The notes beneath the pieces are model-generated. The model was not told where the DNA came from, did not search any database, and saw only the letters and a list, made by a program, of their open reading frames with translations. Both the position numbers and the translations under genes were made by a program. DNA of 64,000 bases from Bacteroidales bacterium (GTDB taxonomy: Bacteria > Bacteroidota > Bacteroidia > Bacteroidales > GCA-2748055): the NCBI GenBank assembly GCA_023138875.1, contig JAGLOO010000037.1, positions 23,471 through 87,470 of the forward strand. Reading direction: 5' to 3'. Shown here piece by piece: positions 26,922-46,861 of this stretch. How positions within the stretch are numbered: position 1 is the first letter of the stretch; each line of letters begins with the position of its first letter.

Positions 26922-26924
26922 GAG

Positions 26925-27236: not shown

Positions 27237-27636
27237 ATCATCGAACGGCCCGAATTATCTTTATAACGCACAGGATAAAGATAAGCAATTATTTCTACAG
27301 ATATTCAGGAATCAAGTAGAAAATGAAACAGGAAAATCAATTTCCCAACTGAAAAGAGACAAAATTCTTGCCAGGGATAACTATCAGTGCTGTGCGTGTG
27401 GAAAAAAACATCTGCTCGGCATCTATCTTCTTAAGGATACACCCTCCTTCCTATCCAAAAAAGAAATACCTGCAGTGTATCATGTCACTCTTTGTCTTGT
27501 ATGCAGAATCAGACTGTTTCTGATAGATTGTGGTCTGGTGATCAATGTGGATAAGGCTTGTGATTTCTGGTGTCGTATCTACCATTCAGGAATTTACAGA
27601 GCAGAGCAATACCTCAATAATCTGGCATTACCATGA
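27229..27636 (+). CDS. Cys-rich hypothetical protein (degenerate HNH-like zinc ribbon?)
   Basis: ARDNYQCCACGKK...HVTLCLVCR has two CxxC pairs. Overlaps both neighbours (8 nt and 4 nt). Confidence 0.4.
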   Translation: MTKSSNGPNYLYNAQDKDKQLFLQIFRNQVENETGKSISQLKRDKILARDNYQCCACGKKHLLGIYLLKDTPSFLSKKEIPAVYHVTLCLVCRIRLFLIDCGLVINVDKACDFWCRIYHSGIYRAEQYLNNLALP

Positions 27637-28460
27637 ATAAAAGCCCAGCATTCTTACTATATCCCAGGGACTTCCTTGAAGGAACAGAAGATATGACCTA
27701 TGAAGAAACAGGAATGTATATCCGCCTTCTTTGCCATGAATGGGAGCGGGGATATTTACCTGCTGATAAAGGTAGGTTAAGCCGACTCTTAAGGGTACCC
27801 TTAAGCACCCTTGAGGTACCCTGGCAAATATTGAGCGAAAAATTTGAGGAAAAAGACGGAAAATTGTTCAATTCTCGCCTGGAGAATGAAAGAAAATCCA
27901 GAATTGAATACATAGAGGGGCAAAAACTTAAAGGAACTATTGGAGCCTTTCTCAAAATCCAGAAGCGGCAACTCCTTAAAAAAGAGTATGATAAGTTGAA
28001 GTCCTCCGTTTTAGAAATTGATACCAAGGGAATGGATAAGGGTACCCTAGAGGCAACCCTTAAGAGTACCCTTAAGGCTAGCTTAAGCACGCGCGTTGAA
28101 AATGAAGATGGTAATATTTGTATTGATAATAGTAGTATTAAGTATAGTAGTTACTATGATAAACAAATAGAGTTAGCTCAGGTAGAGAATAACCTTCAAT
28201 ATGAGGAAGTAGTAAAAATCCTATTCGGAAACAATTCTCTGAAACAAAAGCTATCTGCCGTCCTCTCCCTTCGTACACAGCTATCATTTGAGCAATCCAA
28301 AGAGCTAATGTTCTACAAAGCGAAACACAAAATCTCTTTCGGAGAGATCCTGGTTGAAATGGAAGGATGGAAGCCCCTCACCCAAAAACACACCACAGTA
28401 TTTGGTTCCTTCAAAACCTTCATGAAAAACAAGTACCCCGAACTAAAGAAAACCTCATGA
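27633..28460 (+). CDS. DUF1376 (YdaU-like) phage replication-associated protein
   Basis: PAFLLYPRDFLEGTEDMTYEETGMYIRLLCHEWERGYLP is the characteristic DUF1376 N-terminus. Confidence 0.7.
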   Translation: MNKSPAFLLYPRDFLEGTEDMTYEETGMYIRLLCHEWERGYLPADKGRLSRLLRVPLSTLEVPWQILSEKFEEKDGKLFNSRLENERKSRIEYIEGQKLKGTIGAFLKIQKRQLLKKEYDKLKSSVLEIDTKGMDKGTLEATLKSTLKASLSTRVENEDGNICIDNSSIKYSSYYDKQIELAQVENNLQYEEVVKILFGNNSLKQKLSAVLSLRTQLSFEQSKELMFYKAKHKISFGEILVEMEGWKPLTQKHTTVFGSFKTFMKNKYPELKKTS

Positions 28461-30229
28461 TCGAAGCATTCAAGAAATATCAAGCTGCCGGATTCGCCAC
28501 CCTTCCAACCAAACAGGACAAATCACCTGATGTGAAAGGAACCTGGAAAGGTGGTATACAGGATCCAGAGGCATACCGAACCGCTCATGGCATTGGAATC
28601 ATTTGCGGGAAACTATCCGGAGGGTTTGAATGCGTGGATTTTGATAATCACTTCGGAGATGCAAAGGAAATCATTTCGGAATTTTCCCGGATCGAGGAGG
28701 TGAAGGAAATCTTCACAAAATATTCCTTTCCTATTGAATCAACCGTATCCGGTGGGTTTCACCTCATTTACCGGTGCAGCACTATTGCAGGGAACCAAAA
28801 GCTGGCACAAAGACCAAAAAAAGAGGGTGACCGGTGGCGCCCGGATACGATCATCGAGACCAGAGGCGAAGGCGGGTACTTTTGCGTGGATCCGACACCT
28901 GGTTACAAAGTGATCAGGAATGATATCACACAGGTACCGGAAATTACTCCGGAGGAAAGAGAGATCCTACTATCTGCTGCAAAGAGTTTCAATACCTGGA
29001 ATGATACCCGGAAGAACGAGTTTGAAGAAACAGATCGGCCAGGAGATATTTTTAACACCAAGCCTGAAGCAGTTGAAGAGACGAGATCCGCCCTGATCGG
29101 TGCCGGGTGGAAGGAACTCACCCCCGAACTCTGGCAGCGGCCAGGGAAGAAGAAAGGAATAAGTGGCACATTGGGGAAAGTGGCTCCGGGCGTATTCTAC
29201 AACTTCAGCAGCAATGGGCACCCATTCGATTCCGGAAAGGCATACACGCCCTTCCAGGTAATCGGACTTCTGAAATACAACGGTGATTTTAAAACCTTCG
29301 CGAAAGAGCTTGCCGAAAGATATGAACTGAGTAAACCTCCAAAAACCCGCTCCGGGAATTCCCCGACTGGATCTACTGGTAATAGCAAACCAAAGGAGAC
29401 TGGTCCGGAACTCGAACAGATCCTCAACAAGGCATATATCGATCTTGAAATCCCGGTATCAAAACCACCAGTGATTATGCGAATACGCGATTATGAAGCC
29501 ACCAGGTCAATTGATAGGCGACTGTTCACCCTGGGTAACTTCTCCGCCGTAATTGGTAAAAGTAAGAGTAAAAAAACCTTCCTTGGCACTCTCTTCCTGG
29601 CATCTGCAGCAGACAATGGATCTATCCAAAATAAAATCATTGCAGATTTTCCGGAAAACAAACAGGCGGTCCTGCTATTCGATACCGAGCAGAGCCGTTA
29701 CGATTCATACCTGAGCAGCTCACGAATTCCAAAAATATTGGGATATATCCCGAAGAATTTTGGCGCTTTTGACCTGCGGGAGTACTCACCCCATGAAAGG
29801 TGCAATATCATCGAATTTGGCCTTGAAAAGTGGAAAAACAGCCTCGGATTCGTGGTGATTGACGGAATAGCCGACCTGGCCACCGCGATCAATGACGAGG
29901 TAGAAGCCAGCAGGGTAGTTTCACTTCTCATGCGGTGGACCAAGATTTATAACTGTCACATTCACGTTGTGATCCATGAGAACAAAGGTGACAACAATGC
30001 AACCGGTCACCTGGGTTCTGCAATTCAAAAAAAGGCCGAGGCCATCATTTCTGTAAAGAAGGACACCAAGAAATTCCGGAGAAGCTATGTTTCCTGCACC
30101 CTGATCAGGGGAACGGCCGATTTCAATGACTTCAGTTTCATTATTAACGAAGATGGACTGCCGGAGGTTGAGGAACTTAAAATGAGTGAAGTAATGAATT
30201 TCACTGAACCCGTTAGAGATGAATTCTGA
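28457..30229 (+). CDS. bifunctional primase-polymerase (PrimPol) fused to a RecA/DnaB-like P-loop ATPase
   Basis: GIGIICGKLSGGFECVDFDNH (DxD), GGFHLIYRC and ETRGEGGYFCVDPTPGY are PrimPol motifs. The C-terminal half has AVIGKSKSKKTFL (Walker A) and GFVVIDGIADL (Walker B). Start moved to the ATG at 28457 (ATGA overlap with the upstream stop) from the track's 28367. Confidence 0.85.
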   Translation: MIEAFKKYQAAGFATLPTKQDKSPDVKGTWKGGIQDPEAYRTAHGIGIICGKLSGGFECVDFDNHFGDAKEIISEFSRIEEVKEIFTKYSFPIESTVSGGFHLIYRCSTIAGNQKLAQRPKKEGDRWRPDTIIETRGEGGYFCVDPTPGYKVIRNDITQVPEITPEEREILLSAAKSFNTWNDTRKNEFEETDRPGDIFNTKPEAVEETRSALIGAGWKELTPELWQRPGKKKGISGTLGKVAPGVFYNFSSNGHPFDSGKAYTPFQVIGLLKYNGDFKTFAKELAERYELSKPPKTRSGNSPTGSTGNSKPKETGPELEQILNKAYIDLEIPVSKPPVIMRIRDYEATRSIDRRLFTLGNFSAVIGKSKSKKTFLGTLFLASAADNGSIQNKIIADFPENKQAVLLFDTEQSRYDSYLSSSRIPKILGYIPKNFGAFDLREYSPHERCNIIEFGLEKWKNSLGFVVIDGIADLATAINDEVEASRVVSLLMRWTKIYNCHIHVVIHENKGDNNATGHLGSAIQKKAEAIISVKKDTKKFRRSYVSCTLIRGTADFNDFSFIINEDGLPEVEELKMSEVMNFTEPVRDEF

Positions 30230-31429: not shown

Positions 31430-31939
31430 TCAGTCTGAATTGAGGGTGGATTTATGGGGATTCTCTGGTTCATAACCTTGTTGTATTAATTGATTGTTGA
31501 TTTGCTCGTAAATATTTATCACCGTTCCTTTTGGCTCCTCTTCTCCGTTCTTTTTGCTGGATCCATCTATCTCACACAATGTCTTGAGGGTTTTTTGAAG
31601 GTTGTCCAGGTTCCTCTCGTCCTTAACAAGCTCTAACATACGATTTATGGTCAGTACCTTTACCTTAAACACCGCATCAAAGAAATCTTTATTCCGCTTG
31701 GCCATATCATCAGTCACCTCCTCAGCCATCTCTTTGGCAATAGAGGCTTTATTCATCTCATCACCATACTGAGTATGCCACCTACGTATTGTGGTGTGGG
31801 ATATCTTTATCTGCTTCCCGGTCTTGTAGTAGCTCAGATCATTCTCCTGCAATATTTCTAACACCTGCATTTTCTGCTTCAAGGTGTATTCGATATATCC
31901 CAATGAAGGCTTTTTCTTTGTGGTCTGCTTCTTTACCAT
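31430..31939 (-). CDS. HTH protein, the only minus-strand gene of the module (regulator or small-terminase-like)
   Basis: Start set at MVKKQTTKKK (31939) because the track's N-terminal extension runs through the tRNA-like fragment. ISHTTIRRWHTQYG is HTH-like, followed by a helical region. Confidence 0.5.
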   Translation of the reverse strand: MVKKQTTKKKPSLGYIEYTLKQKMQVLEILQENDLSYYKTGKQIKISHTTIRRWHTQYGDEMNKASIAKEMAEEVTDDMAKRNKDFFDAVFKVKVLTINRMLELVKDERNLDNLQKTLKTLCEIDGSSKKNGEEEPKGTVINIYEQINNQLIQQGYEPENPHKSTLNSD

Positions 31940-31953
31940 TGGTAAAATGTTTG

Positions 31954-32160: not shown

Positions 32161-32955
32161 GTGGAAAGAACAGGATGCGAACCAGGTCCATTTAACTATT
32201 ATGAGATGGTGAAACGTATGAGGGAGTCAATCGCCAAACGTGATGCTTTGAACCAAAAGAGAGAACGAGACAAAAATATTACCGATGTGATCAACTTGCT
32301 TGTCTACGGTCCGGCGGGTCCAAATCAATCGGTTATTGGCGCGCCAAATGGTTACAGGGCATTGGACCGGTTCCGGATGTTGAGCATTGACGGCGAATCA
32401 AAAAATCTACAATTCAAACTTGCCCGTGAGGCCGAAGGTAGGCAGAGAGCGTTTACGAGGGAGCAAGCAGATATCCAGAGAGCCTTCACCGCAGGAAAAA
32501 GGTATCAAGACAAGGTGTATTCCGATAAAATAGGATATATCCTCAAAGGAGTGAGCATCACGCCTGATCTGCATATGAAAATGCTCATGCTGTTGCAGAT
32601 GATGTACGATGGTTTTGTGAACAAACCAAGAGCGCTGAAGGATATTGACATGAATGAAAATGTCCAGGATGAGTCAATACGTGATTTAATTCTACAGCAC
32701 TGGGATGATTTGAAGAAGGTTGTTCCAGAGCTATCCGCAGCGCAGAGCAGGGAGACGATGGTTGAAATATCACAAGCAACCAACCAATCACAAGATAATT
32801 CACAGGCATATGCAAATAGTATTGCAAATGTCATGGCTAATACAGAATACAGTTACCGAAAGAAGTTGAGACTCATTCGTGATGCAGCAATGAATCACAA
32901 CGGGTGGGATAAGGATAAGGCCGAACAGTATGCCAAAGAATTGTTGAAGGATTAA
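32161..32955 (+). CDS. hypothetical protein, paralog A of a tandem pair
   Basis: Shares LDRFRML, EAEGRQR.FT.EQA and KGVSITPDL..KM...LQMMY.G...KPRALKDID.NENVQDESIRDL....WD.LKK.VPELS with the next gene. The first ATG is at 32206 (the track uses GTG at 32161). Confidence 0.55.
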   Translation: MERTGCEPGPFNYYEMVKRMRESIAKRDALNQKRERDKNITDVINLLVYGPAGPNQSVIGAPNGYRALDRFRMLSIDGESKNLQFKLAREAEGRQRAFTREQADIQRAFTAGKRYQDKVYSDKIGYILKGVSITPDLHMKMLMLLQMMYDGFVNKPRALKDIDMNENVQDESIRDLILQHWDDLKKVVPELSAAQSRETMVEISQATNQSQDNSQAYANSIANVMANTEYSYRKKLRLIRDAAMNHNGWDKDKAEQYAKELLKD

Positions 32956-32975: not shown

Positions 32976-34232
32976 ATGTTTCCAGCATACGACGATCAGG
33001 ATAAGCAGAGGATGCAAACGCTATTTAACACAATGAAGGACGTTGAGGTTGCTCCACAGGTAAGAGATGTAGGCCCATTCTCCTCACTGTTCAACTATGA
33101 GCAGGAGAAAGCGCGTCAGGATGAGTCATATGCCAAGCGGGAAGAGGTGAATCAGAAAATTGCACGGGGCAATTCTATCGTTGATGCATTCAGACTGATC
33201 ACCCAAGGGCTTACCGGATCTGCAGGGGCCACTATTCCAAAGGAAGCACCCAACCAATCGGTGATCCGTGCGCTGAATGATTTCATGGTACTGGACAGCG
33301 AGAAAAAGGAAGCGTTAGACCGGTTTCGGATGCTAGGGTTGAATGCCTCGGCTCGTGACCTACAATACAAGCATGGGCTTGAAGCAGAGGGCAGGCAGAG
33401 GGAGTTCACAGGAGAACAGGCAGAGCTTGGCAGGACCTTTCAGGCAGGGGAAGCAGAGAAGGGAAGAGAATTCAAGGCAGGGGAAATGGATATTAGTCGT
33501 GAATTCTCAGCTACAGAGGCAGCGAAAAGGGATAAGGCCAGGGCAGATCAGATTCATCTTACACAGAAAGGCCAGAGAAACCTTGAAAAATACAGGGCTG
33601 ACCAGGGCCATTACAGTTATCAGGACAGGGCATATTCCAATAGAAAATCCTACGACCTCAAAGGAGTAAGCATCACGCCTGATCTTCAAACAAAGATGAT
33701 ACGGGCATTGCAGATGATGTACGAAGGTGATCCTATGAAACCAAGAGCGCTGAAGGATATTGACAGGAATGAAAATGTCCAGGATGAATCTATCCGTGAT
33801 TTGTTCCTGGGAAATTGGGATGAGCTGAAGAAGTTAGTTCCTGAGCTATCTACTGCCACAGGGGTAACACCAGGTCAATCAACCGCACAACCACAACAGC
33901 AACAGAAGCGTAATCCAGCCGAAGGTGATAGTGTGTTACTGGAAAAGAAGCTCAAGGATGCTGCTAGCAGATTCAGCAAGGAGGGCAAACCCCGTAAGCA
34001 GATCAAGGATAACAAACGACCAGGGGTTTCACTTGAAAAGCAAGCAAAGCAGAATGATCGCATTGGCATAATGATGAGGGCGTTTAAAGAATTCGATCCC
34101 GACATTACCTGGGAAGAAGCATATAATGATGCGATGGAATTCCTGTACGGGCATTATCAAAAACGGCAGAGCTTTAATGCGAGTGGTCAGGGGACCATCA
34201 ATCAGTCAATGGCATATTATCCTCCTCAATAA
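32976..34232 (+). CDS. hypothetical protein, paralog B (longer, with internal REF/RTF short repeats and a Q-rich tract)
   Basis: 418 aa. Same conserved blocks as paralog A, plus GRQREFTGEQAELGRTFQAGEAEKGREFKAGEMDISREF and PQQQQK. Confidence 0.55.
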   Translation: MFPAYDDQDKQRMQTLFNTMKDVEVAPQVRDVGPFSSLFNYEQEKARQDESYAKREEVNQKIARGNSIVDAFRLITQGLTGSAGATIPKEAPNQSVIRALNDFMVLDSEKKEALDRFRMLGLNASARDLQYKHGLEAEGRQREFTGEQAELGRTFQAGEAEKGREFKAGEMDISREFSATEAAKRDKARADQIHLTQKGQRNLEKYRADQGHYSYQDRAYSNRKSYDLKGVSITPDLQTKMIRALQMMYEGDPMKPRALKDIDRNENVQDESIRDLFLGNWDELKKLVPELSTATGVTPGQSTAQPQQQQKRNPAEGDSVLLEKKLKDAASRFSKEGKPRKQIKDNKRPGVSLEKQAKQNDRIGIMMRAFKEFDPDITWEEAYNDAMEFLYGHYQKRQSFNASGQGTINQSMAYYPPQ

Positions 34233-34244: not shown

Positions 34245-37200
34245 ATGATAAATGATCCTCCAAAAAAATCCGGTTTTCAAGAGAAGTATGGATTTGATGC
34301 TTTCAATTCATTACCCACCATTAACACGAATCCCGATCCTGTCCAAACAGGTGTGTTGGGAAGTGAATTTGTTGGTGAGTCGGAGGAGGATAAGCAGTTT
34401 TGGAGGGATTGGAATATAAAAAACCCCGGCGAACAAGCAAAACTGGCGTGGGAGGCTGGAACAAAAGAACTCAAGGGTGGTGTGAAGAACATGATTGCAG
34501 ATGTTGCACCTTTGGTAATGTCAGCGGCCTCACCGGGCACTATTCCCGAAATCTATCAATATGAGGATTGGATACTTGGACTTCAGGAATCTGCGGCAAA
34601 AGACTTTGAAACAGCACCCGAAGGAGCTGGGCTGCTTTATGAAACAGTGAGGATGATGCCACAGATGGTTGGAACAATGGCTGCATTGACAACCACCCCG
34701 TTCACCGGAGGCACATCGATGGCAGCCCTCCCAGGTATACTTGGTATGGCGAATATCGGTATGCTCTCCTCATCGGTATATGGCCGGTCCCTGTATGACT
34801 ATGACCAGTATGTTGCTGAGAAAGGTCTTGAAACCAACCAATTTACACGAAGGGGAGTTGCTGCGGCATCCGCAGCGATGGAGTTTATTGCTGAGAAGCT
34901 GCGATTGGACTTCATGTTGCCAAAAGGCATGGCCGGACGAATGGCATCGCAACTATTTAAATCCGATCCAAGCCTTGCAGACGATGTTATGCGCAAATGG
35001 GCGAAGAATGACCCAAAAGTATATCAGAAGTTTATGGGTTTGGGTAAAACAACCCTTGCAAACATGGGGCAGGAAGGTGCGGAGGAATTTCTTACCGAAG
35101 TGGGACAGTCCATTGCCCAAAATGTTTATTTGCTTGGCGAGGACCGACTTGGAGCGATGGATATTGTTATCAATGCTGGCGAGGCTGCAAAAGGCGGTGC
35201 GATGATGGGTGGGATGCTGGGTCCCGCTTCATACTCATCGAACCAGTTGTATCACAAGATGCGCAAAAACCGGAACGGAGCAACTATTATTGAAACAGAG
35301 GACGGCTCGGTTTACGAATACCTGGGAGTAGACAGTAAAGATCCGAACATGGCAACGGTGATGGATAACAGACTGAATATGACCTCAATCCACAAAGATC
35401 ATATTAAGGATCATCGCACCATGACCGACCAGGAGTTGAGTGAATACCTGAATGTGTACAAAGATTCGCAGGAAAACTTACCACAGCTTGAAGATCAGAT
35501 GCGCCGTAATACCACAAAGCAACACCTTAACAGTGTGGGCCAAAGTATTGTGAACACTGAGGATGGAACACCGCAGGTCAAGGTTGGAAAGAAGCGGAAC
35601 GGTGGCTATGTGTTTATCAAAAGTCAATGGGAGGAGATGCCTGGTCAGACCAAGATGATTGTTGTGGATCCGGAAACCATGGAGCTGGACATGATGGATG
35701 CAAGTCAGATCGGTGAAATACGCACCCAAAGCTATGATTCATGGCTAGAAGTTCAGACCGATCAGATGGTTGGTGTGCAGGACCAGCAGCGAAGTGCGCA
35801 GATGGAACAAGCTGTTGTGGAGGAGCAGATCAAGGATGAGGCCGGGATCCCAGAGTTCAAGGAGGGCGAGAAGATCACATACCAGGACCGTGAGTGGATT
35901 GTTGATGAAGTTGATACGGATGGTACATTGAATGTATACGCCAATGAGGAAGACGGGACCCCTGGGGAAACGATTCCTATTAGTCCTGAAATGCTTTCAG
36001 AAGTAAATAGATACACACCCGAAGCACCTATTACAGAAACAGGGGAGCAGCAGGGCCAACAGAAGGAAAAGATCCTCAATGACGGTAAAAATGATTATCC
36101 GGTAGTTGATGGCAAGATCCAGCAACCATTCACAACTGAGAAAGCAGCGAATTCCCTGGTAAGCAAACTCAAGAATGAATACCCCGGATTGAACTTTACA
36201 GTTGATATTATGGATGATGGGGATCCATTCACTAAGAATGAGTACACAATCACTGTAGAGCCTATAAATATTACCAATGGTGAAGAAACGACCCCAGAGA
36301 CATCCCAGGGAGTCGCCCCGTCGCAAACAGGCGAGGATGAGCTTAAAACCACTGAACCGAGATACTTTAAAGACGAAGAGGATGTTACAAAAGGATATAT
36401 CCAGGGCCGTATCCTTGCAGCGAAATCAGATGGTGATCTCCACGGGTTATCATGGGAGAATGACCCGGAACTGGACGCGATGCGCAAAGAGAAGTTCCCG
36501 GAGGCAGTACCAACATACACATATAATGGCCAGGAGATTGAGCAGGACGTTGCCCGTGGAATTATCGACGGTGCAACAGAGGCCACGGATCTGGAACAAT
36601 TGGTGGTTAAGAACGATGACGCAACCGGTCAGACATATTTGGATAAGATAAGCGAGTTGCAACCTGAGACCGAGGAAGCTCCAGGGGTAGAGCAGGAAGA
36701 AGTAAGTGCACCCATTGACCAATCACAGGAGGATGCTATCAGTGAAGCAGAGGGATTGACACAGGAGCCAGCTGCTGAAGAAACTACTCAGATTGAATCT
36801 ACTCCCGTTCAGGAAACAGAAGTAGAGGCCACACCCGCAAAACCCGTAACCGAAACAGAGCAGAAATTAGCAGCAGCAGAGGCCGAAGTAGATCAGAACC
36901 CTTCAGAAGCAAAAATCGAGGCCGGCAACTACAAAAAAGGCCATGTTTCCATCCAGGGACTTGATATCACTATTGAGAACCCCAAGGGATCCACCAGGTC
37001 CGGGACTGATCAGGATGGTAAGAAGTGGAGCCAGATTATCAATAATACCTATGGATACTTCAAACGGTCCATGGGTAAAGACGGTGATCAGATAGATGTG
37101 TTCCTGGGCGAAAACATTGAGTCAGATAAGGTATTTGTGGTTGACCAAGTAGATACGAAAACCGGAGCCTTTGATGAGCATAAGACCATGGTCGGATTTG

Positions 37201-40200
37201 ATAGTGTTGAGGAGGCCCGTGAAGCCTATCTATCTAACTATGAGGAAGGGTGGCAGGGACTTGGTGCTATCACCGAGATGTCAATGGTGGAGTTTAAAAA
37301 GTGGGTGGATAGTGGTACCCGAAAGCGCAAGCCGGTCAGCGAGATGAAGACTCTCAAGACCGAAACACCTGTCATTGACAAAGAAAAGGCTCACAACCGA
37401 TTGATTGAATTGGTTCGCGCATACAACAAGATCCCGAAAAGCCATACTGTAAAACGATCCGGAGCAATACAGACCATCAATAACCTTACCGGACAGCTTG
37501 GATACTCCATAACAAGAAATGACAAAGGCAAGCTCGTACCGCTAAACGAGAACAGCAAGCAGATACGCACAATCTCAGATCAGGTTGATTATATCTCCCT
37601 GGTAGAGATCGAGGATGAAGCGTTTACATCCTTTGCACATGATTTCTTGGTGAATGAAACGATATTGCACAACTTGGATGTTCCTATTTATGGTAAAGCA
37701 CTTTTCAAAGCAGCCAAAGATGCTATCAGTGGCAGAAAGAACGCTGAGAGTGACTTATTGATCCGAAACATTCAGGAGATGTACGATTCTGATAGTTTTA
37801 ATTATAGAGCCGGGGAGGAAACAGGTGCGTTCAACGTAACAGTAACAGAGGTAAACGACCTGATCGCAGAGCCAAAATTGATTAAATTTGTAGAAGAGAA
37901 TGGTGCTCTTGATATTACCAATATCGACAAAGCACTCGATGCTGGGCTTGTAACGCAGGATGAGTATGAAACAGTCAAAAAACAATTCGAAGATGAACTC
38001 AACCAACGAGAGCAAATCGAACGAGAATCCGATACCGAGCTTGGAGTCACAGAAGATGGTGACCGCGTTCAGGATACTCAGGGCCAGGAAAGCCAAGAAA
38101 TAGATAACGAATCGACCCAGGCGCTCGAATCCGAGATTGCCACCTTAAAAGAATCCCTTTCCGAAACCCGGAAAGCCAGGGAGTCCAAGAAAAAAGAACT
38201 TTCCAAGAGATTGCACCAGCAGCAGAGCATGTTCGCCGGTGAGAAACTTGCACGGATGGATCAAAACCTGTTCGAAGTTAAGCAGGATGGATCCAGGGAG
38301 AATATCGATAAGATCCTGGGTGAGTTTGATAACACTATTGCCGGGATTGAGAACCAGATCGAGCAAAAGGAGAAGCAGCTGGCCACCGCGAAAAAAGAGT
38401 CTGCAGGGCAATTGGAGCTGGAACCCACCAAGAAAACTGAAAAAATTGAAGATTTCGGAGAGAAGATCGGTGGGGCGCGGAAGGATCAGTGGGCCCAAAG
38501 CCTTGCATCACTCAACAAGCTGACCGATGATGACCTCATTTCCCTTCCGCTTGTTAAAGCAATTCCCGTACCCGATTACAAAGAACTGGTTGCATCCGGT
38601 AAGATGAACAAAAAAGAGGTTGCCCTACTTCACTATTACCGGACCAACATGAGCCGCAAGCCGGCAGAAACAGCACAGAACTACAAAAAAGCACGATGGC
38701 TCAAAGAGGCTAACCTGTACAAGCAAGTCTATGCCTGGATGCTGGATAAGAAAGGGTTTGAAGAGACTCACGGCAAAGCGTTCGTTGATTTGATGGATGA
38801 GCGTATATCATTCCATGCAGCAAAGGAGATTAAGGAATTCACAAAAATGTTGGAAGCACTTGGTTTCCCGGAAACCTTTGATGGTAACTTGAAGAAATTC
38901 AAGATAATGAAGTTCGATAGCCGCGAGGACTTCACTATTATAAATGGTCGGAAGATTATCGCAGATTTCAAAACCTATGATGAGGCTATCGCTGCATTGA
39001 AACACATTCTGGAGGAAACCGGGAACCAGCGCAGCAGGGTGACATTCGATGCCTGGAGCTTGAGTGGTAAGAAAGGTGTGATGGTGGGTAAAAAGGTTGG
39101 TCCGAGGAAATTCATTACCCTGGCCGGGCCTTTTGAAACAGGTAAGGAAGCGTTCAATTATATTAAGGATAATCAGGAAACCCTTGAGCAACAGCTTGCT
39201 GAAGAAAAAGTAATTCCCGCAGAACGACCGGATGTTGCAGAGGAGCGATCAGGCAAGGATCACCGTAACGGGAAGGATGTTACGCCCGATATGTTCCAGG
39301 AAGCGTTTGGGTTCCGGGGTGTGGAGTTTGGCAACTGGGTGGAGAATGCAAAACGACAGGGTGATCTTAACCTTGCTTATGATGCGCTGATGGACCTGGC
39401 AGAGATAACAAACATCCCATCCCGTGCAATATCTCTTGGTGGTGAGCTGGGCCTTGCGTTCGGAGCAAGAGGTAAGGGAGGAAAAGACAGATCCAGCGCA
39501 CATTATGAGCCTGATAAGATTGTGATAAACCTGACAAAAGTGTGGGGCGCAGGATCACTCGCACATGAATGGTGGCATGCCATTGATAATTATTTCTCCC
39601 GCCAAAGAGATAAGAAGCACGACTATCTGACCGAAAAACCTCGTTCGTTGCTTGTGAAGAAAGATGGTGAGTGGGTAGATGATGTTTCTGTTCGCCCGGA
39701 AGTTGTTGGCGTATTTTATGATGTGGCAAAAGCAATCAAGGATAGCGGGATGGTTGAAAGGGGCACCGAGTTAGACAGGCGCAAGACGAAAGATTACTGG
39801 TCACAGATGCGCGAGATGTCCGCACGGTCCTTTGAATCATATGTGAAGGATAAGCTGGATGAGCAGGGGATTAAAAACGATTACCTGGTCAGCTTCAAGG
39901 ATATGGTGGATTATATCGTTCAGACAGGCGCCGCAGAGGATGTGTACCCCTACCCCACCAAAGGAGAGCAACCGACTATCAACAAGTCTTTTGAGAATCT
40001 GTTTGATGTGATTGAGACGGTTAACGATGAGGCTGGTAATACTGTTCTGTTCAAAGTCGAAGAGCAAGCTGGTTCCTCCCAAGAGGGGGCATTCCCAGGC
40101 ACAGATGTACGCGATGTAGCTGAGCAGTTATCCAAACAGTTTAATACACCCATTGAGGTTGTCATAACCCGTCAAGAGCTGCCACCACATATTCAGAGAG

Positions 40201-43200
40201 CGATTAAGGATGACACACGCATCCCTGGCGTTTATGATGTGCAGAACGATAAGGTGTACCTGATCGCTCGTGAGGTCAAAAGCAAAGAGGAGGCACAGCA
40301 AACAGTATTCCATGAGATTGTTGGCCACAAAGGATTGAGGGAATTACTTGGGCATGAGTATGATCAGATGTTGACAGATGTGTACAACAGCATGTCGGAA
40401 GGTGACATATCCACCATGTCACGGGTGTACGGCACCACAGATCAGCTTGAGATAGCTGACGAGTATATTGCCCGGATAGCAGAGGATAATTCCAATCCGT
40501 CCATCATTGATAAGTTCGTTGCGAAGGTGCGCAGACTGATCCGCAAGGTATTTAAGATCAACTACACCAAAAAGGATATCATTGATCTGTTAAGTAAATC
40601 CAGGGAAGGATTGAAGAAAAAAGCAAGACCACAATTTGCTGGTGAATACCTGGATGTGCAGTTTAAGGCTGAAGAGGAAGGAGAAAAGAAGGACGGGCCG
40701 CCGATAAACATATTACAGAGCAAAGCCCAAAAGTTCAGGGAGAACTGGCAAGACAGGATGCTTTCTGTGCGAAATCTCCAGAAGCAAGTAGAAGAAAGAG
40801 GCGGGAAGATTACCGATTTTTCCAATGCCTACGAACGGGAGAACGCATCACACCAAATTGTCAGGGAGGCTATTGAAAGGTTCGATGATAAATATGAACT
40901 CCCATTATTGAAGGCTATCAGCGAAATTGAAAAAAGTGCAGATATGAACTTCAAAGAGGTCAATGAGTACATGAAGGCCAAACATGCTCTTGAGAGGAAT
41001 CTGGTAATGGCAAAACGAAACCCGAAATCAAATAAAACAAACTGGTCCGGGATCGAAACCGTGGATGCAGCAAAAACAGTAAGGAAGTATGAATCGAGAC
41101 TAACAAAGGATCAGATTAATGATTTTTGGAAAGCCGTCAATAACGCCACTCTATTTTCACTTGACAGGGCTATGGCAGATGGATTCATCTCGAAAGATTT
41201 GCATGATAAACTCACCAAAGGGGAAGATGCTTACAAGTTTTACGTTCCGTTAAGGGGCTGGGAGCCGTCAGAAACAGACGCGCTGATCGATTATATGGAA
41301 ACAGACGTAGGTAGGATTATGAACCCGTATCGTTCAGCCAAAGGTCGCACAACAATGGCAGACGACCCATTGAAGTATATCACAAATATGGCCCACACAG
41401 CTATTATTATGGGCGAGAAAAACCGTGTCAAGCAATATGCATCAGCCCTTGTGAGAAACAACAAAGGAATGAACGATCTATTTTCATTCAAGAAAGTGTA
41501 TTACGTGTGGGATGGCACATATGATGAGAATGGTAAAAAGAATCATAACGAAACGGTAATAAAACCTCCGCAGGAATTGTTTGATGAGGGTAAAGTAGAA
41601 ATCAAATTCAACTCCGACTACATGATCCGCAGGCCGGTCTCACACGCAAAAGAGCATGAGGTGGATATGTGGCAGGGTGGTGAAAAATATGTTCTGATCC
41701 TGCCGGCAGATGTGGCCAATGCGCTGAATAAAACACCATCACCAATAGAGGAAATGACTCGAAATGCAATGCGGTCAAAATGGACAGCTTGGGCACCGAT
41801 GTTTACAAGGTGGATAGCATCTGAATTCACCAGCAGGAATCCTGCTTTTATTCCGATCAACCAAATGCGTGATGTTGGATATGCGATGATGGCACACGCT
41901 ATCAAGGGAGAAAGGGGTGATGCTGGAAAATTCATTATGAACATGGGGAAGGCCCGATCAGCTATTATAAGAGATTTAAAAGGGAAGCTCGATCATAATA
42001 GTGAAGTCGGTAAGATGTATCAGGATTTTGTCCGGTTAGGTGGTCCTACAGGATGGATTCACCTCAGAGATGTTGAACAGTTGGAGAAAGATATCCAGAA
42101 GAAACTAAAAAGGTTAGAAGGCGGGAAGCCTGGTGCAAAGCAAGTGAGAGATTTATACCTAAAAGCAGGTGAGCTCCTGGAGCATTGGGCTATTCGATCT
42201 GAGAACCTTTCACGTTTCGCAACATATATCACAGCCATTCAAAACGGGAAAGGATCCAAACAGGCAGTTCAGGCAGCGAAGGATATAACCGTTAACTTTA
42301 ACCGGAAAGGACGAAACACATCGCTTGCCGGGGCATTGTTCGTATTCTTTAATGCAGGTGTCCAAGGTGGTCATAATTTCCTGAAACTAGGTAAAGATAA
42401 TCCTGGTAAGTTTATTGGTGTGGGAGCTGGATTCATGGCATTAGGCTTCCTGACCGCACTATTCAATCACCTGTGGGCCGGTGATGATGACGATGATACG
42501 ATGAACGATTACCAGGAGTTGAACGATTATCATAAGTTCAATAGTCTGGTCATACCTGTACCTGGGAAGGATCGATTCGTTAATATCCCCCTTCCCTTTG
42601 GTTTCAGGGCATTCAACGCATTAGGGGTACTTGCATATCAAAGCCTCGTATCGAAGGAGAAAGATATTGGAGAAGCGGTGAAGGATGGTCTGTCAAATAT
42701 AGGTACGGCTCTTTCCCCGGTAAATCCTATTGAATTTATTAACGAGGATGGAACCTTGACGGCCAGGCCGATTATACCAACAATCGGGGTACCGATTTTT
42801 GATATAGCAACAAATGAGGATTTTGCCGGTAACACTATAACCAGAACACCATTTACAACAGCGCAAGAAGGGTACCTGGCTGACTCCGGACTAGGGAAGA
42901 AGCATGTGAATAAGCAACTGAAATGGCTCACAGACGAGTTATTCAAACTTGGTGGAGGTCATGTAGCCGAAGATGACGATAAGCGGAATAAATATTATAT
43001 CGATGATGATGGCAAAAGTAAGCATGTTAGTGAAATATTTGATTGGAACCCGTCAAAAATCGAACATATGTTTGAGTATTTATTCGCAGGTCGAGGTAGG
43101 TTCTGGAATAATACACTCAAAACCAGTACCGGGATTCTAGAAGGTGCGCGTGATGTTATTGAGGGTGATAAGGGGATTGAGAAGATACTTTCCAATGTGA

Positions 43201-43550
43201 ACCCCAACACGGTTCCTGTGTTCCGGAGGCTGTATGTACAATCCTGGCAGAACTCTGTTTACACAAGGTATTACGATTTACTGAATTATATGGATGAGTA
43301 CGAGGCTGCCCTTAACACTGAATCCAGAAAAACCGGTATTGATAATGAGGATCTGATTGACCCATACCATCGGTTCGTTAAGGATGAAATCAAATATCTG
43401 AATAAAGACCTGAAATATATCGATGATCAACTTGACCTGTTGGATCCGGATAAAAACGAAAAGCTGAAAAAGCAGAGAGAATTATATATCAGGAACTTCA
43501 ATGATATGATAATGCGCTTCCAAGAGAAATATGACATAGATATGAAATAG
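34245..43550 (+). CDS. 3101-aa multi-domain 'polyvalent-like' protein (pyrophosphatase-like module, two HExxH zincin-like modules, terminal hydrophobic segments)
   Basis: Single uninterrupted 9306-nt ORF. YGYFKRSMGKDGDQIDVFLG (family-I PPase-like DGDxxDV). AHEWWHAID at nt 39564-39578. FHEIVGHKGLRELLG at nt 40311-40328. EDFGEKIGGARKDQW at nt 38448-38492. TM-like FIGVGAGFMALGFLTALF followed by DDDDD. Confidence 0.8.
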   Translation: MINDPPKKSGFQEKYGFDAFNSLPTINTNPDPVQTGVLGSEFVGESEEDKQFWRDWNIKNPGEQAKLAWEAGTKELKGGVKNMIADVAPLVMSAASPGTIPEIYQYEDWILGLQESAAKDFETAPEGAGLLYETVRMMPQMVGTMAALTTTPFTGGTSMAALPGILGMANIGMLSSSVYGRSLYDYDQYVAEKGLETNQFTRRGVAAASAAMEFIAEKLRLDFMLPKGMAGRMASQLFKSDPSLADDVMRKWAKNDPKVYQKFMGLGKTTLANMGQEGAEEFLTEVGQSIAQNVYLLGEDRLGAMDIVINAGEAAKGGAMMGGMLGPASYSSNQLYHKMRKNRNGATIIETEDGSVYEYLGVDSKDPNMATVMDNRLNMTSIHKDHIKDHRTMTDQELSEYLNVYKDSQENLPQLEDQMRRNTTKQHLNSVGQSIVNTEDGTPQVKVGKKRNGGYVFIKSQWEEMPGQTKMIVVDPETMELDMMDASQIGEIRTQSYDSWLEVQTDQMVGVQDQQRSAQMEQAVVEEQIKDEAGIPEFKEGEKITYQDREWIVDEVDTDGTLNVYANEEDGTPGETIPISPEMLSEVNRYTPEAPITETGEQQGQQKEKILNDGKNDYPVVDGKIQQPFTTEKAANSLVSKLKNEYPGLNFTVDIMDDGDPFTKNEYTITVEPINITNGEETTPETSQGVAPSQTGEDELKTTEPRYFKDEEDVTKGYIQGRILAAKSDGDLHGLSWENDPELDAMRKEKFPEAVPTYTYNGQEIEQDVARGIIDGATEATDLEQLVVKNDDATGQTYLDKISELQPETEEAPGVEQEEVSAPIDQSQEDAISEAEGLTQEPAAEETTQIESTPVQETEVEATPAKPVTETEQKLAAAEAEVDQNPSEAKIEAGNYKKGHVSIQGLDITIENPKGSTRSGTDQDGKKWSQIINNTYGYFKRSMGKDGDQIDVFLGENIESDKVFVVDQVDTKTGAFDEHKTMVGFDSVEEAREAYLSNYEEGWQGLGAITEMSMVEFKKWVDSGTRKRKPVSEMKTLKTETPVIDKEKAHNRLIELVRAYNKIPKSHTVKRSGAIQTINNLTGQLGYSITRNDKGKLVPLNENSKQIRTISDQVDYISLVEIEDEAFTSFAHDFLVNETILHNLDVPIYGKALFKAAKDAISGRKNAESDLLIRNIQEMYDSDSFNYRAGEETGAFNVTVTEVNDLIAEPKLIKFVEENGALDITNIDKALDAGLVTQDEYETVKKQFEDELNQREQIERESDTELGVTEDGDRVQDTQGQESQEIDNESTQALESEIATLKESLSETRKARESKKKELSKRLHQQQSMFAGEKLARMDQNLFEVKQDGSRENIDKILGEFDNTIAGIENQIEQKEKQLATAKKESAGQLELEPTKKTEKIEDFGEKIGGARKDQWAQSLASLNKLTDDDLISLPLVKAIPVPDYKELVASGKMNKKEVALLHYYRTNMSRKPAETAQNYKKARWLKEANLYKQVYAWMLDKKGFEETHGKAFVDLMDERISFHAAKEIKEFTKMLEALGFPETFDGNLKKFKIMKFDSREDFTIINGRKIIADFKTYDEAIAALKHILEETGNQRSRVTFDAWSLSGKKGVMVGKKVGPRKFITLAGPFETGKEAFNYIKDNQETLEQQLAEEKVIPAERPDVAEERSGKDHRNGKDVTPDMFQEAFGFRGVEFGNWVENAKRQGDLNLAYDALMDLAEITNIPSRAISLGGELGLAFGARGKGGKDRSSAHYEPDKIVINLTKVWGAGSLAHEWWHAIDNYFSRQRDKKHDYLTEKPRSLLVKKDGEWVDDVSVRPEVVGVFYDVAKAIKDSGMVERGTELDRRKTKDYWSQMREMSARSFESYVKDKLDEQGIKNDYLVSFKDMVDYIVQTGAAEDVYPYPTKGEQPTINKSFENLFDVIETVNDEAGNTVLFKVEEQAGSSQEGAFPGTDVRDVAEQLSKQFNTPIEVVITRQELPPHIQRAIKDDTRIPGVYDVQNDKVYLIAREVKSKEEAQQTVFHEIVGHKGLRELLGHEYDQMLTDVYNSMSEGDISTMSRVYGTTDQLEIADEYIARIAEDNSNPSIIDKFVAKVRRLIRKVFKINYTKKDIIDLLSKSREGLKKKARPQFAGEYLDVQFKAEEEGEKKDGPPINILQSKAQKFRENWQDRMLSVRNLQKQVEERGGKITDFSNAYERENASHQIVREAIERFDDKYELPLLKAISEIEKSADMNFKEVNEYMKAKHALERNLVMAKRNPKSNKTNWSGIETVDAAKTVRKYESRLTKDQINDFWKAVNNATLFSLDRAMADGFISKDLHDKLTKGEDAYKFYVPLRGWEPSETDALIDYMETDVGRIMNPYRSAKGRTTMADDPLKYITNMAHTAIIMGEKNRVKQYASALVRNNKGMNDLFSFKKVYYVWDGTYDENGKKNHNETVIKPPQELFDEGKVEIKFNSDYMIRRPVSHAKEHEVDMWQGGEKYVLILPADVANALNKTPSPIEEMTRNAMRSKWTAWAPMFTRWIASEFTSRNPAFIPINQMRDVGYAMMAHAIKGERGDAGKFIMNMGKARSAIIRDLKGKLDHNSEVGKMYQDFVRLGGPTGWIHLRDVEQLEKDIQKKLKRLEGGKPGAKQVRDLYLKAGELLEHWAIRSENLSRFATYITAIQNGKGSKQAVQAAKDITVNFNRKGRNTSLAGALFVFFNAGVQGGHNFLKLGKDNPGKFIGVGAGFMALGFLTALFNHLWAGDDDDDTMNDYQELNDYHKFNSLVIPVPGKDRFVNIPLPFGFRAFNALGVLAYQSLVSKEKDIGEAVKDGLSNIGTALSPVNPIEFINEDGTLTARPIIPTIGVPIFDIATNEDFAGNTITRTPFTTAQEGYLADSGLGKKHVNKQLKWLTDELFKLGGGHVAEDDDKRNKYYIDDDGKSKHVSEIFDWNPSKIEHMFEYLFAGRGRFWNNTLKTSTGILEGARDVIEGDKGIEKILSNVNPNTVPVFRRLYVQSWQNSVYTRYYDLLNYMDEYEAALNTESRKTGIDNEDLIDPYHRFVKDEIKYLNKDLKYIDDQLDLLDPDKNEKLKKQRELYIRNFNDMIMRFQEKYDIDMK

Positions 43551-43596
43551 CCTGCAGGAATAAATTCTCACTCGGTCCTGAGATGAAACAGAAAAA

Positions 43597-43620
43597 CCGC
43601 CTCCCGGTGAAGAGAGGCGG
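43597..43620. terminator. hairpin between the convergent giant ORF and 43723-43986 gene
   Basis: CCGCCTC-ccggtgaaga-GAGGCGG is a 7-bp GC-rich stem, with an A-run before it and TATTT after. Confidence 0.5.
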
Positions 43621-43722
43621 CCTATTTGATTGCTTTACGATTTTTAATTACTCCGGCATTCACCGGATAGGAAGATGGTGGACAATCTAAGAAGATAGTG
43701 AAATATGGCCACTATGTCCAGA

Positions 43723-44127: not shown

Positions 44128-44415
44128 ATGAATTACCTGCGTATAAAGGATCTACTGAAAGAGAAGGGATTAACCGCCAAGGACCTAGCCCTGGATCTCA
44201 ATATCACTGAGAATGGGATCAGCATGATTGTGAACGGTAAAAGACAGCCCCGCTTCGAATTGCTTCAGCAAATCGCAGACCGGTTAGATCTTGAGATTTG
44301 GCAGCTGTTCAAAGGGTCAGACAAGGCCGTGAAGGGGTGTATCGAGTACCAAGGGATTCTTTACCACATACAGACGAAGCAGGGGCTGGAGAGGCTTCTG
44401 AAGTTAATTGAGTGA
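44128..44415 (+). CDS. XRE-family helix-turn-helix transcriptional regulator
   Basis: LRIKDLLKEKGLTAKDLALDLNITENGISMIVNGKRQPRFELLQQIADRL is a canonical HTH_3 pattern. Confidence 0.8.
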   Translation: MNYLRIKDLLKEKGLTAKDLALDLNITENGISMIVNGKRQPRFELLQQIADRLDLEIWQLFKGSDKAVKGCIEYQGILYHIQTKQGLERLLKLIE

Positions 44416-45901: not shown

Positions 45902-45907
45902 TGTTTT

Positions 45908-46861
45908 ATGGATAAGCAGAAGAACATATTCATCAGCTACTCAAGCAATGATCAGGACAAAGTTGGTATTTTAAAAGAATTGATAAAGATAAAAAATGGG
46001 CTAAATCCCATTGTCATTGCTGATAAACGAGAAGCCCAAAAGCCTCTAACTGACAAAGTAATTGATGGGATAGAAAAATCTGAAATAGTCGTTCCCATTA
46101 TAACGAGTAGATCAATTCATACACAATGGATGAACCAGGAGATCGGTTATTCCCTAGCGTTAAGTAGAAAGGTTACAGCTATTGTGGAAAGAGAACTACT
46201 CGATGATTTAAAAGGATTCATCCATAAACAGGTTGATCTTCCATATAATTTTTCAAGGAGTAATAATAGTGATGAAGAAAACAAAGGATTTGAATCTGCA
46301 TGCATACTTCTGGTCAACGATATCCTATTTAGCAAAGAAAAATCAATGACGTTGCCAAATCTTGCTGACAAGCATATGAATAAAATTAAGGAGAAGGTTG
46401 AAAGAGAAAAACTGGAAAGTGAAAAGGAGAGAATGCTCAATAGCCAAGAAATAGTGACTATTGCAAATCAAGCCGTGGATAATGAGCTTCTTCCTTATGT
46501 GCATGAGCAAAAGGATAAATGGAATCAGATAATTGGGAAGAATGTGCCCTATGAAACTAGTCCTAATGATCCAAATGGCATAATACTTAATCTAAGAGGA
46601 TTTGCTCTAAGTTTTGTTTGGAGGCAACCACATAGAAATTCAATTGAATCGGCCAAATTAACAGTAAGCCTTTGGGACGGTAGAATGTCTTTCATTCAGT
46701 TTAGATACCCGATTGAAGATCGTCCTGATATTATAAACGAAATGAAGTGTCAACCTTATTTAGACGATGAACTTCGTTTTAAGTGGAACAACTCAACGGA
46801 ATTGATGGATTCAAAACAAGTCGTTGATGTTGTATTCGAGTGGTTAGCTGAAGTATTCTAA
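45908..46861 (+). CDS. TIR-domain protein with an unknown ~170-aa C-terminal domain
   Basis: NIFISYSSNDQDKVGILKELI...KSEIVVPIITSRSIHTQWMNQEIGYSLAL matches the bacterial TIR (TIR_2/DUF1863-like) pattern, including the S..W...E putative catalytic Glu. Confidence 0.75.
   Translation: MDKQKNIFISYSSNDQDKVGILKELIKIKNGLNPIVIADKREAQKPLTDKVIDGIEKSEIVVPIITSRSIHTQWMNQEIGYSLALSRKVTAIVERELLDDLKGFIHKQVDLPYNFSRSNNSDEENKGFESACILLVNDILFSKEKSMTLPNLADKHMNKIKEKVEREKLESEKERMLNSQEIVTIANQAVDNELLPYVHEQKDKWNQIIGKNVPYETSPNDPNGIILNLRGFALSFVWRQPHRNSIESAKLTVSLWDGRMSFIQFRYPIEDRPDIINEMKCQPYLDDELRFKWNNSTELMDSKQVVDVVFEWLAEVF

Follow-up and report, generated by a model that had tools for sequence, protein, structure and literature searches.

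An intact giant polyvalent protein, putatively a phage ejection protein, encoded in a Bacteroidales tRNA-Asp island devoid of particle genes

Polyvalent proteins join unrelated enzymatic domains in one polypeptide, and it was proposed by Iyer, Burroughs, Anand, de Souza, and Aravind in 2017 that they are delivered together with the DNA and processed by an embedded metallopeptidase (PMC5512222). InPase, LPD5, LPD1, and LPD38 are polyvalent-protein families of that study, InPase and LPD38 being specific to the proteins of phage type (PMC5512222). The protein class is already known and very large, and the NCBI pipeline names relatives of the protein discussed here "LPD38 domain-containing protein." Here, we describe a member encoded in a 64,000-nucleotide (nt) stretch of a Bacteroidales bacterium (GenBank assembly GCA_023138875.1, contig JAGLOO010000037.1, positions 23,471 to 87,470 of the forward strand; hereafter, the window). 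The gene is an uninterrupted open reading frame (ORF) of 9,306 nt, running from ATG to stop and encoding 3,101 amino acids (aa), and it occupies 34% of a 27,118-bp island inserted at a tRNA-Asp gene, in agreement with an earlier sequence-only reading that had described a single 9.3-kb ORF filling a third of the element. This copy is intact and lies in an island unable to make particles. That context is the only unusual aspect of the locus, and it rests on a single locus.

Among phage proteins, the best matches to the window protein came from short-tailed Stx-converting phages (933W-type, Sepvirinae) and from a Bacillus podophage, in each case the giant protein. In the Stx phage phi24B, this protein is gp47 (vb_24B_48). 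The phi24B protein was detected in purified virions by proteomics, is invisible in the reconstruction, and has been proposed as an encapsidated ejection protein (bioRxiv 10.64898/2026.04.10.717836). In a CRISPRi-ART study, a 2198-aa LPD38-only protein of coliphage PTXU04 was critical for infection. By tblastn, the window protein matched the Stx-phage giant proteins over aa 1400-2967 (~28% identity, E 7e-83), and its last 900 aa were collinear end to end with aa 1883-2777 of gp35 of phage Stx2-86 (BLASTP E 1e-51), a protein 91% identical to that of phi24B. The ejection or pilot-type role that the sequence-only reading had raised as a possibility is thereby backed by homology to a protein whose phi24B orthologue is found in virions. 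Earlier work had thus drawn attention to the giant-protein class on two counts, as a virion-borne ejection protein of Stx phages and for its critical part in infection by one coliphage.

Membership in the phage-type polyvalent class is clear from the profile searches, as foreseen from the letters alone. In a Pfam scan, the giant protein matched PF18823 InPase (E 2.6e-57, 192.9 bits), PF18799 LPD5 (aa 1570-1687, E 6.5e-26, 91.8 bits), PF18796 LPD1 (aa 1843-1924, E 4e-20, 72.1 bits), and PF18857 LPD38 (aa 2754-2963, E 3.4e-23, 83.2 bits), all four above gathering cut-offs of ~27 bits. Two PHROGs families of giant phage proteins matched as well (phrog_14770, E 5e-132; phrog_616, E 1.5e-129), with a weaker match to "DarB-like antirestriction." At least two unrelated effector or enzymatic domains are thus carried by one polypeptide, namely the InPase domain, a zincin-like LPD5/CLCA_X/LPD1 domain, a domain with an HExxxH motif, an LPD14-like domain, and a core with LPD38. 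No Pfam match was obtained to MuF_C, MPTase-PolyVal (none at E<=1), SNF2, or any methylase family, the last two having been noted as lacking from the letters alone; no tape-measure protein or N4-type virion RNA polymerase was matched in Pfam, PHROGs, or NCBIfam; and PADLOC assigned the protein to no defence system. The product of the giant gene is therefore a true phage-type polyvalent protein, and we are highly confident in this identity and in the general mechanism that goes with it.

An identical protein is already on record as a hypothetical protein of a Bacteroidales metagenome-assembled genome, and the 90% cluster to which it belongs has this one member only. The nearest relatives are 47-70% identical at the protein level, so that synonymous sites are saturated. 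At E<=1e-10, 245 homologues carrying polyvalent domain sets were retrieved. BLAST coverage across 119 homologues was highest for the InPase domain (aa ~836-1045, in up to 116) and for the C-terminal core (aa ~1956-3060, in ~105-115), and the segments between them occurred sporadically. The conserved ends of the protein, an LPD14-like domain and a core of ~940 aa, bracket a variable, swappable payload, and in this copy the payload combines InPase with an LPD5/zincin/LPD1 block of the Stx type and includes the small HExxxH domain as its third part. Features of the protein and of the island are collected in Table 1.

Table 1. Coordinates of the giant gene, its domains, and other features of the island (positions in the window)
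Feature	Position	Strand	Basis
Giant phage-type polyvalent protein, Cys-free	34245..43550	+	3101 aa; Pfam, PHROGs, homologue set
Divergent LPD14-like Gly/Ala/Met-rich N-terminal domain, aa 199-332	34839..35240	+	hhalign probability 97.4%, E 1.5e-11
InPase domain, family-I pyrophosphatase-like, aa 889-1021	36909..37307	+	PF18823; residue conservation
Conserved region beginning with EDFGEKIGGARKD, aa 1402-1569	38448..38951	+	tblastn range; homologue consensus
Probable zincin-like domain: C-terminal part of LPD5, HEWWH (aa 1774-1778, nt 39564-39578), LPD1	39246..40016	+	NCBIfam, Pfam, conservation, AlphaFold2
Domain with invariant HExxxH (HEIVGH, aa 2023-2028, nt 40311-40328), candidate metal site	40110..40724	+	Conservation in 34 homologues; AlphaFold2 (small beta-sheet, then motif helix)
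All-alpha C-terminal core, aa 2160-3097, with LPD38, transmembrane-like segment, DDDDD	40722..43535	+	Collinearity with Stx2-86 gp35; cluster search
Partner paralog, 264 aa, internally deleted copy	32161..32955	+	BLASTP against the 418-aa copy, E 9e-49
Partner protein, 418 aa, Cys-free, coiled-coil-rich	32976..34232	+	8 homologues; contexts L005, L008-L011, L092-L101
Small helix-turn-helix protein "HTH170," accompanying the partner-giant pair in related contigs	31430..31945	-	tblastn, 30-31% identity
attL, 22-bp direct repeat GCGGTCTGGACGGGACTCGAAC, displaced tRNA-Asp 3' end	24331..24352		Repeat search; three-way alignment
tRNA-Asp(GTC); 3' 22 nt (51449-51470) = attR	51449..51524	-	ARAGORN; Rfam tRNA 69.7 bits; repeat
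Tyrosine integrase	24518..25789	+	Pfam Phage_integrase E 7e-19, Phage_int_SAM_5; phrog_1
Two small HTH_17/DUF3853 excisionase-like genes	26595..27236	+	Pfam HTH_17 E 3.7e-10; DUF3853
Replication module: DUF1376 protein and Prim-Pol/AAA_25 primase-helicase (gene 28457-30229)	27633..30229	+	Pfam; phrog_19930
GC-rich hairpin, 12-bp stem, between the giant gene and a convergent 104-aa ORF (43723-44037)	43594..43623	-	Terminator scan
Cro/CI-type helix-turn-helix regulator	44128..44415	+	Pfam HTH_3 E 2.9e-12; PHROG repressor families
TIR-domain (ThsB-like) protein, defence-type cargo	45908..46861	+	Pfam TIR_2 E 3.3e-9; PADLOC ThsB E 4.6e-8
Mrr-type restriction endonuclease, defence-type cargo	49408..49989	+	Pfam Mrr_cat E 2.1e-15; PADLOC mREase_IV

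The pyrophosphatase-like signature noticed by the sequence-only reading proved to be a well-preserved InPase domain, and the InPase-like, EDFGEKIGGARKD, and metal-site motifs it had reported were all located in place. In 56 distinct homologous segments, E911, R918, Y936, D946, D951, D977, E978, and K980 were invariant and D948 was kept in 55, so that both the predicted acidic metal ligands of family-I pyrophosphatases (DxDxxD and a downstream D/E) and the Arg, Lys, and Tyr substrate residues are conserved. Searched by sequence against the PDB, the InPase domain matched a phage portal of known structure in that protein's C-terminal domain (chain L of 9b41, E 1.5e-28). The Gly/Ala/Met-rich stretch near the N-terminus, which had been read as hydrophobic, is present and forms part of the divergent LPD14 domain, an assignment made by profile-profile comparison with the LPD14 region of the P0003 group of 4.2-kaa Bacteroidales proteins. 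Homology to the Stx-phage giant protein begins at the EDFGEKIGGARKD region; the motif is kept in the consensus of 17 homologues and appears as KIEDFGEEIKGAAKH in the Stx proteins.

Two HExxH zincin-like sites had been proposed, and the evidence separates them. The first, HEWWH, has modest profile and fold support: aa 1668-1922 gave a near full-length match to NCBIfam CLCA_X (NF041907, E 2.1e-45), with 155 bits against a family cut-off of 260, and H1774, E1775, H1778, and D1781 were invariant in 24 distinct homologous segments, as was a Glu further downstream. An AlphaFold2 model of aa 1560-2160, built from an 18-sequence alignment, gave a predicted local distance difference test (pLDDT) of 70-94 for the LPD5/CLCA_X/LPD1 domain. 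With Foldseek against the PDB, anthrax lethal factor was among the top five matches (probability 0.6-0.85 over ~265 columns, E only ~0.1), and the minigluzincin selecase scored below it; against a viral library, the significant matches were other polyvalent proteins and MuF-type head-morphogenesis proteins, with weak IrrE-, SprT-, and PolyVal-MPTase-like matches. The first site is therefore probably part of a zincin-like domain. The second, HEIVGH, is an HExxxH motif and not a canonical zincin signature: across 34 distinct homologues, residue 2027 varies among Ala, Gly, and Ser, with no His; in the same segments, H2023, E2024, H2028, G2030, L2031, and G2036 were invariant, and the first ~90 residues of the domain (aa ~1954-2044) had a pLDDT of 70-82 in the same model. 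The Stx2-86 protein aligns HEIIHH at this site and carries its MuF_C domain separately, further on, and the HExxxH domain is therefore not MuF_C. We regard it, from residue conservation, as a candidate metal site of unproven class.

The C-terminal core is widespread. A search with it returned 8,684 clusters at 50% identity with E<=1e-3 and 2,889 with E<=1e-30, and among the matches listed, it lay at the extreme C-terminus of proteins of ~1,000-6,500 aa. The alignment contained the invariant motifs TSxNPxFxxxNxxRD, ExxSR, and AKxxTVNFNRKG...FxN. These polar clusters (fragment positions 574-588, 698-702, and 723-748 of the translated segment 40110-43547 of the window) stand in an otherwise helical region, and judged by their residues, they look more like a catalytic or ligand-binding site than like a purely structural region. 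Of the transmembrane-like segments suggested ahead of the DDDDD run, one strong segment was found by hydrophobicity analysis (aa 2720-2746, Kyte-Doolittle 1.73), directly before DDDDD at aa 2747-2751; the other hydrophobic segments (aa 156-178 and 2778-2796) are weaker. The hydrophobic segment and acidic run are kept in the Stx protein as ...AGEDDDG. Cysteine is absent from all 3,101 residues of the window protein and from all 2,783 of Stx2-86 gp35, and the 418-aa partner of the window protein is likewise Cys-free. Across 120 homologues (568,571 aa), cysteine made up 0.09% of residues, compared with 0.88% in the host flanks and 0.99% in the other island genes; the depletion is thus family-wide and tenfold.

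Relatives of the core occupy one characteristic position. In a scan of one genome per species, 208 genomes contained them, mostly from the Bacteroidales, with some from the Bacillota, Staphylococcus, and the Balneolaceae. Among the 59 loci with at least 4 kb of downstream sequence, a P22-type portal gene followed in 50, at a median of 503 nt past the end of the core match, and a portal, large terminase subunit (TerL), or capsid match was found in 55. The portal directly follows the giant gene on the contigs of the homologues P0002 and P0003, and in the closest relative (L012, 70% identical over 1181 aa), the portal ORF overlaps the stop codon of the giant gene. Four loci had no virion matches. 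In two of these (L046 and L062), the host genes for MurF or ThrRS follow within a few kilobases, so that the giant gene is the last prophage gene there, as in Stx phages, and these loci are for that reason uninformative on virion-less contexts; a third (L066) gave no PDB match. The relatives thus sit upstream of the portal in podophage-type modules and not in a tape-measure position, and what the sequence-only reading called a backbone gene is rather a late-module gene of P22-portal podophages set in a foreign, virion-less backbone. As a side observation, the 6-kb contig of L012 (CAZWME010000331.1), with its core relative and P22-type portal, is binned as "uncultured Pirellulales" and is probably a mis-binned phage contig.

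From these relatives, we infer the following course of events. In the podophages that are the usual home of the family, the giant gene lies directly upstream of the portal gene. Its product would be synthesized late and stored in the capsid, to leave by way of the portal and the tail when a cell is infected. The near absence of cysteine throughout the family, the hydrophobic segment with its acidic run, and the Gly-rich N-terminal domain would suit a chain that passes the tail unfolded and touches the cell envelope. The payload domains would then act early in the infected cell: InPase may remove pyrophosphate or a nucleotide-derived signal, and the metallopeptidase-like domain or domains may process the polyprotein into functional parts or cleave targets in the host or the cell wall. 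The small partner protein, free of cysteine and encoded just upstream, may serve as a co-factor of the giant-protein module. To what was known of the class, our analysis adds features that can be tested, namely the modular map, the cysteine depletion, the invariant polar motifs of the core, the His-Glu-His domain that escapes existing profiles, and the linked partner family.

The partner genes and the giant gene form an operon-like row (partner, partner, giant) with gaps of 20 and 12 nt, and the two upstream genes are paralogous, as the sequence-only reading had proposed. The 264-aa copy lacks ~76 internal residues and differs from the 418-aa copy at its C-terminus, and this points to either a duplicate in decay or a shortened isoform. 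The family is small (8 proteins among 5.8 billion searched), and the co-occurrence check suggested for it gave a uniform answer, the next gene, 4-18 nt downstream, being the giant ORF on every contig with a partner-family member. The giant ORFs of two such contigs (L011 and L092) are 46-47% identical to the window protein over the first ~700 aa, and a further partner relative (E 4e-12) precedes the giant gene of P0002. When the 418-aa partner was compared by BLASTP with its positional equivalents, no similarity was found to Stx2-86 gp34 or to the P0003 prophage gene, the L005 gene being the only one detectable among these contexts; the protein was not found in a scan of IMG/VR.

In the sub-lineage that carries the partner family, the layout is a gene of ~830-1320 aa and a ~170-aa HTH gene, both on the minus strand, followed by a 203-aa gene, the partner, and the giant gene. 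HTH170 of the window matched by tblastn, at 30-31% identity, the minus-strand 167-aa gene of L008, L009, L093, and L097, and its profile matches were weak (HTH_23/HTH_Tnp_1, E ~2e-3). The window retains the HTH gene, two partner genes, and the giant gene. Three neighbours are missing, namely the large gene on the minus strand, the 203-aa gene, and the portal; the borders of the block fall at gene ends, with HTH170, partner, and giant whole. We had considered HTH170 as a small terminase and dropped this assignment, which drew no support from its large neighbour gene in the relatives. That neighbour matched only phrog_32516, whose function is unassigned, was not similar to the TerL of L002, and had no PDB sequence match even with a 6-sequence profile. 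The phrog_32516 family (830-1320 aa, with many invariant residues) always adjoins the HTH170 homologue in module relatives; members include L095:1133-3787 (-), genes of L097, L098, L099, and L101, and gp34 of Bacteroides phage BKO1-TP3 (L102:16999-19647), and the gene is present, unannotated, in three cultured Bacteroides phages. Just upstream of HTH170, a tRNA-like stretch (31950-32025, -) contains a perfect T-arm at 31962-31979, whose 17 nt are those of the T-arm of tRNA-Asp, and a stem-loop resembling an anticodon arm, CUCAUAU (CAU), with a poor D-arm and acceptor stem; neither ARAGORN nor the Rfam tRNA model called it, and it amounts to a T-arm-like hairpin only.

The island is delimited by the exact repetition of the last 22 nt of tRNA-Asp. 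Its left arm holds, in order, the integrase, a DUF6617 protein, the two HTH_17/DUF3853 genes, a 135-aa ORF, the DUF1376 gene, and Prim-Pol/AAA_25; in the middle, a 98-aa ORF, an endonuclease-like 158-aa ORF, and a 76-aa anti-repressor-like fragment precede the HTH170-partner-giant block and the hairpin; and the right arm consists of the convergent 104-aa ORF, the Cro/CI regulator, and small ORFs that include the TIR protein and the Mrr nuclease. Relatives of the Prim-Pol protein at 56-61% identity are encoded on two IMG/VR phage contigs with a Terminase_3 large subunit and an SPP1-type portal, whereas the kin of the giant protein are found in P22-portal phages, and the replication arm and giant module therefore derive from different phage lineages.

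That the island shows no delivery machinery was upheld by each search. No ORF matched a head, tail, packaging, lysis, relaxase, coupling-protein, or type IV secretion system family in Pfam, PHROGs, NCBIfam, or PADLOC, and tblastn with all ORFs of related phage loci and extra terminase, portal, and capsid probes found nothing beyond giant, partner, HTH170, and Prim-Pol. Portal, TerL, major capsid protein, and MuF are absent between attL and attR (remnants of the first three were sought by tblastn with 3 probe sets), and the linkage to head and packaging genes that typifies the phage-type class is missing here. A conjugative or mobilizable element, whose polyvalent protein would move with single-stranded DNA through a type IV secretion system, is hardly credible as an explanation. 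Polyvalent proteins do occur in conjugative elements (PMC5512222), LPD1- and LPD5-containing proteins are found on plasmids, and the island contains Bacteroidales mobile-element genes (DUF6617, HTH_17, and DUF3853); against this stand the lack of any relaxase, coupling-protein, or secretion gene in the library scans, the portal, terminase, and capsid genes that adjoin the relatives, and the tailed-phage contigs in which the closest relatives of the Prim-Pol module reside.

What the island does with the module is less certain than what the module is. The explanation that we favor overall, with some reservation, is that a phage ejection polyprotein module has been kept by a prophage-derived island and retained for helper-dependent use; this overall preference blends our view of the identity and mechanism of the protein with our lower estimates for its use by the island. 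Since the island lacks particle and transfer genes, the giant protein could enter another cell only within capsids that a related helper phage provides. Set against idle carriage, retention for such use seems to us slightly more probable than not. Taken by itself and in absolute terms, helper-dependent use (satellite-like and including an interfering variant discussed below) is rather doubtful, and that the tRNA-Asp island is an undescribed kind of Bacteroidales satellite supplying its own ejection module to the capsids of a helper podophage is unlikely. Were it so, the satellite DNA would enter the next cell escorted by its own injected enzymes and not by those of the helper.

The principal alternative is a recent prophage remnant, in which a temperate phage, mosaic or in decay, would have been stripped of its entire particle module, from portal to lysis, through deletion or recombination, and the giant and partner genes would be idle leftovers that mutation has yet to disable. 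Prophage decay is common, and we consider this a serious possibility that we would nevertheless not expect to hold. It agrees with (i) the internally deleted partner paralog, the 76-aa anti-repressor fragment, and the tRNA-like remnant; (ii) the pairing of an SPP1-portal-type replication arm with a P22-portal-type giant module, which takes at least one illegitimate recombination; and (iii) a degenerate att copy at 22150-22171, which shows that the site accumulates remnants. On the other side, the 9.3-kb ORF offers mutation its largest target in the island and yet is unbroken and complete, ends within 7 residues of the C-terminus of L012, and preserves all conserved catalytic residues; the integrase and replicase are likewise intact, as are the perfect 22-bp att repeats; and all three missing neighbours were removed exactly at the gene borders of the HTH170-partner-giant block, whose three genes remain.

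The defence-type cargo in the same island (TIR and Mrr) and the intactness of a module without cognate particle genes could also be read as interference, the island's giant protein and partner displacing the corresponding proteins from the capsids of a related podophage that infects or is induced, and spoiling its progeny as a form of host defence. Satellites and prophages are known to interfere with helper assembly (SaPI and P4). We judge this very improbable: the evidence is purely circumstantial, PADLOC gave no match for the giant protein, and all catalytic residues are kept, which an assembly poison would not need.

Several points weigh against retention for helper-dependent use, and against parts of the ejection model on which it builds. 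The virion location is carried over from a homologue of ~28% identity. The HExxxH domain is covered by no profile library searched, and its metal site is non-canonical. AlphaFold2 of the core (aa 1956-3101, 22-sequence alignment) gave a poor all-alpha model (pLDDT 58, predicted template-modelling score 0.49), and Foldseek with this model found no fold match in the PDB (best E 0.56, TM<0.1); from it, we take nothing beyond "all-alpha," and because the model is poor and without a fold match, a role of the core as conduit or anchor is conjecture. One instance of the island was found, its backbone being present in 0 of 80 genome loci and 0 of 10 metagenome loci, a count that equally suits the remnant explanation. 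No packaging-redirection function (small terminase, cos, or pac) was identified in the island, and the signs of decay and mosaicism listed above count here too. Finally, known satellites measure ~10-18 kb compared with 27 kb for the island. In the literature searched, no ejection-type polyvalent protein was described in a virion-less integrative island, and no satellite was described for the Bacteroidales. If helper-dependent use is true, it would extend the known contributions of satellites to hijacked virions and provide the first Bacteroidales satellite candidate; if the module is a mere remnant, the locus is ordinary.

Two further observations concern the surroundings. The ThsB-like TIR protein has no recognisable ThsA partner, the Mrr nuclease is type IV-like, and both lie amid unannotated small ORFs, and the right arm may be a defence hotspot with uncharacterised neighbours (44688-49403). 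Outside attL, a third, degenerate copy of the tRNA-Asp 3' end with a terminator-like hairpin lies at 22113-22171 (core ~22150-22171), and two ORFs on the minus strand (22244-23014 and 23008-24006) lie in the 2.1 kb that separate it from attL; the segment 22113-24330 resembles what is left of an earlier element integrated in tandem at this tRNA.

Compared with known systems, the island resembles phage satellites (PICI, P4-like, and PLE) in its tRNA site, intact att repeats, integrase, HTH regulators, primase-helicase, defence cargo, and lack of particle genes. The satellite family markers sought in it (small terminase, capsid-size redirection genes, and P4 psu, sid, and delta) were not found, and we know of no satellite that carries an ejection polyprotein. 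The podophage ejection proteins (T7 gp14-gp15-gp16 and P22 gp7-gp20-gp16) offer a functional analogy only, with a similar layout of small partner and very large protein. In T7 and P22, consecutive genes beside the head genes encode one or more small partners and a very large internal protein, which are stored in the capsid and, once ejected, span the envelope, and T7 gp16 carries an enzymatic (transglycosylase) domain. No sequence or fold similarity of the giant protein to these proteins was detected.

Like other Iyer-type polyvalent proteins, of which DarB of P1 is the classic case, the window protein joins unrelated enzymatic domains (InPase, LPD1, LPD5, LPD14-like, and LPD38) and gives a weak PHROG match to DarB-like antirestriction. 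It differs in having no methylase, helicase, MuF or portal fusion, or Pfam MPTase-PolyVal domain, with a different zincin-like domain instead, and in lacking at this locus the link to head genes that defines the phage-type class. The 4,000-5,400-aa polyvalent proteins of Bacteroidales prophages (P0003, P0019, P0081, and P0100; for example, the "LPD38 domain-containing protein" of Phocaeicola plebeius and Bacteroides cellulosilyticus) belong to hosts of the same order and share an InPase domain of ~50% identity, LPD1, an LPD14-type N-terminus, and a C-terminal core that is 26-28% identical over ~1,100 aa. Unlike the window protein, they add SNF2 helicase, N6-adenine methylase/Eco57I, kinase, ART, PBECR, and LPD23 domains, and their genes precede those for a P22-type portal, TerL, and an SU10-like capsid; the partner family of the window is missing from them.

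From the Stx giant proteins (phi24B gp47 and Stx2-86 gp35), the window protein differs in several respects. The Stx proteins have no InPase and possess MuF_C, a domain missing from the window protein; BLAST detected no similarity for their N-terminal 900 aa; the 421-aa gene upstream of theirs is not detectably similar to the partner gene; and their gene ends a complete podophage late operon, whereas that of the window stands in a particle-less island. The likeness extends over the whole of aa 1400-2967 of the window protein, where the two are homologous and share the same order of an EDFGE-type motif, LPD5, the HExxH zincin-like site, LPD1, the His-Glu-His domain, and the all-alpha core with LPD38, hydrophobic segment, and acidic run, all in a protein free of cysteine.

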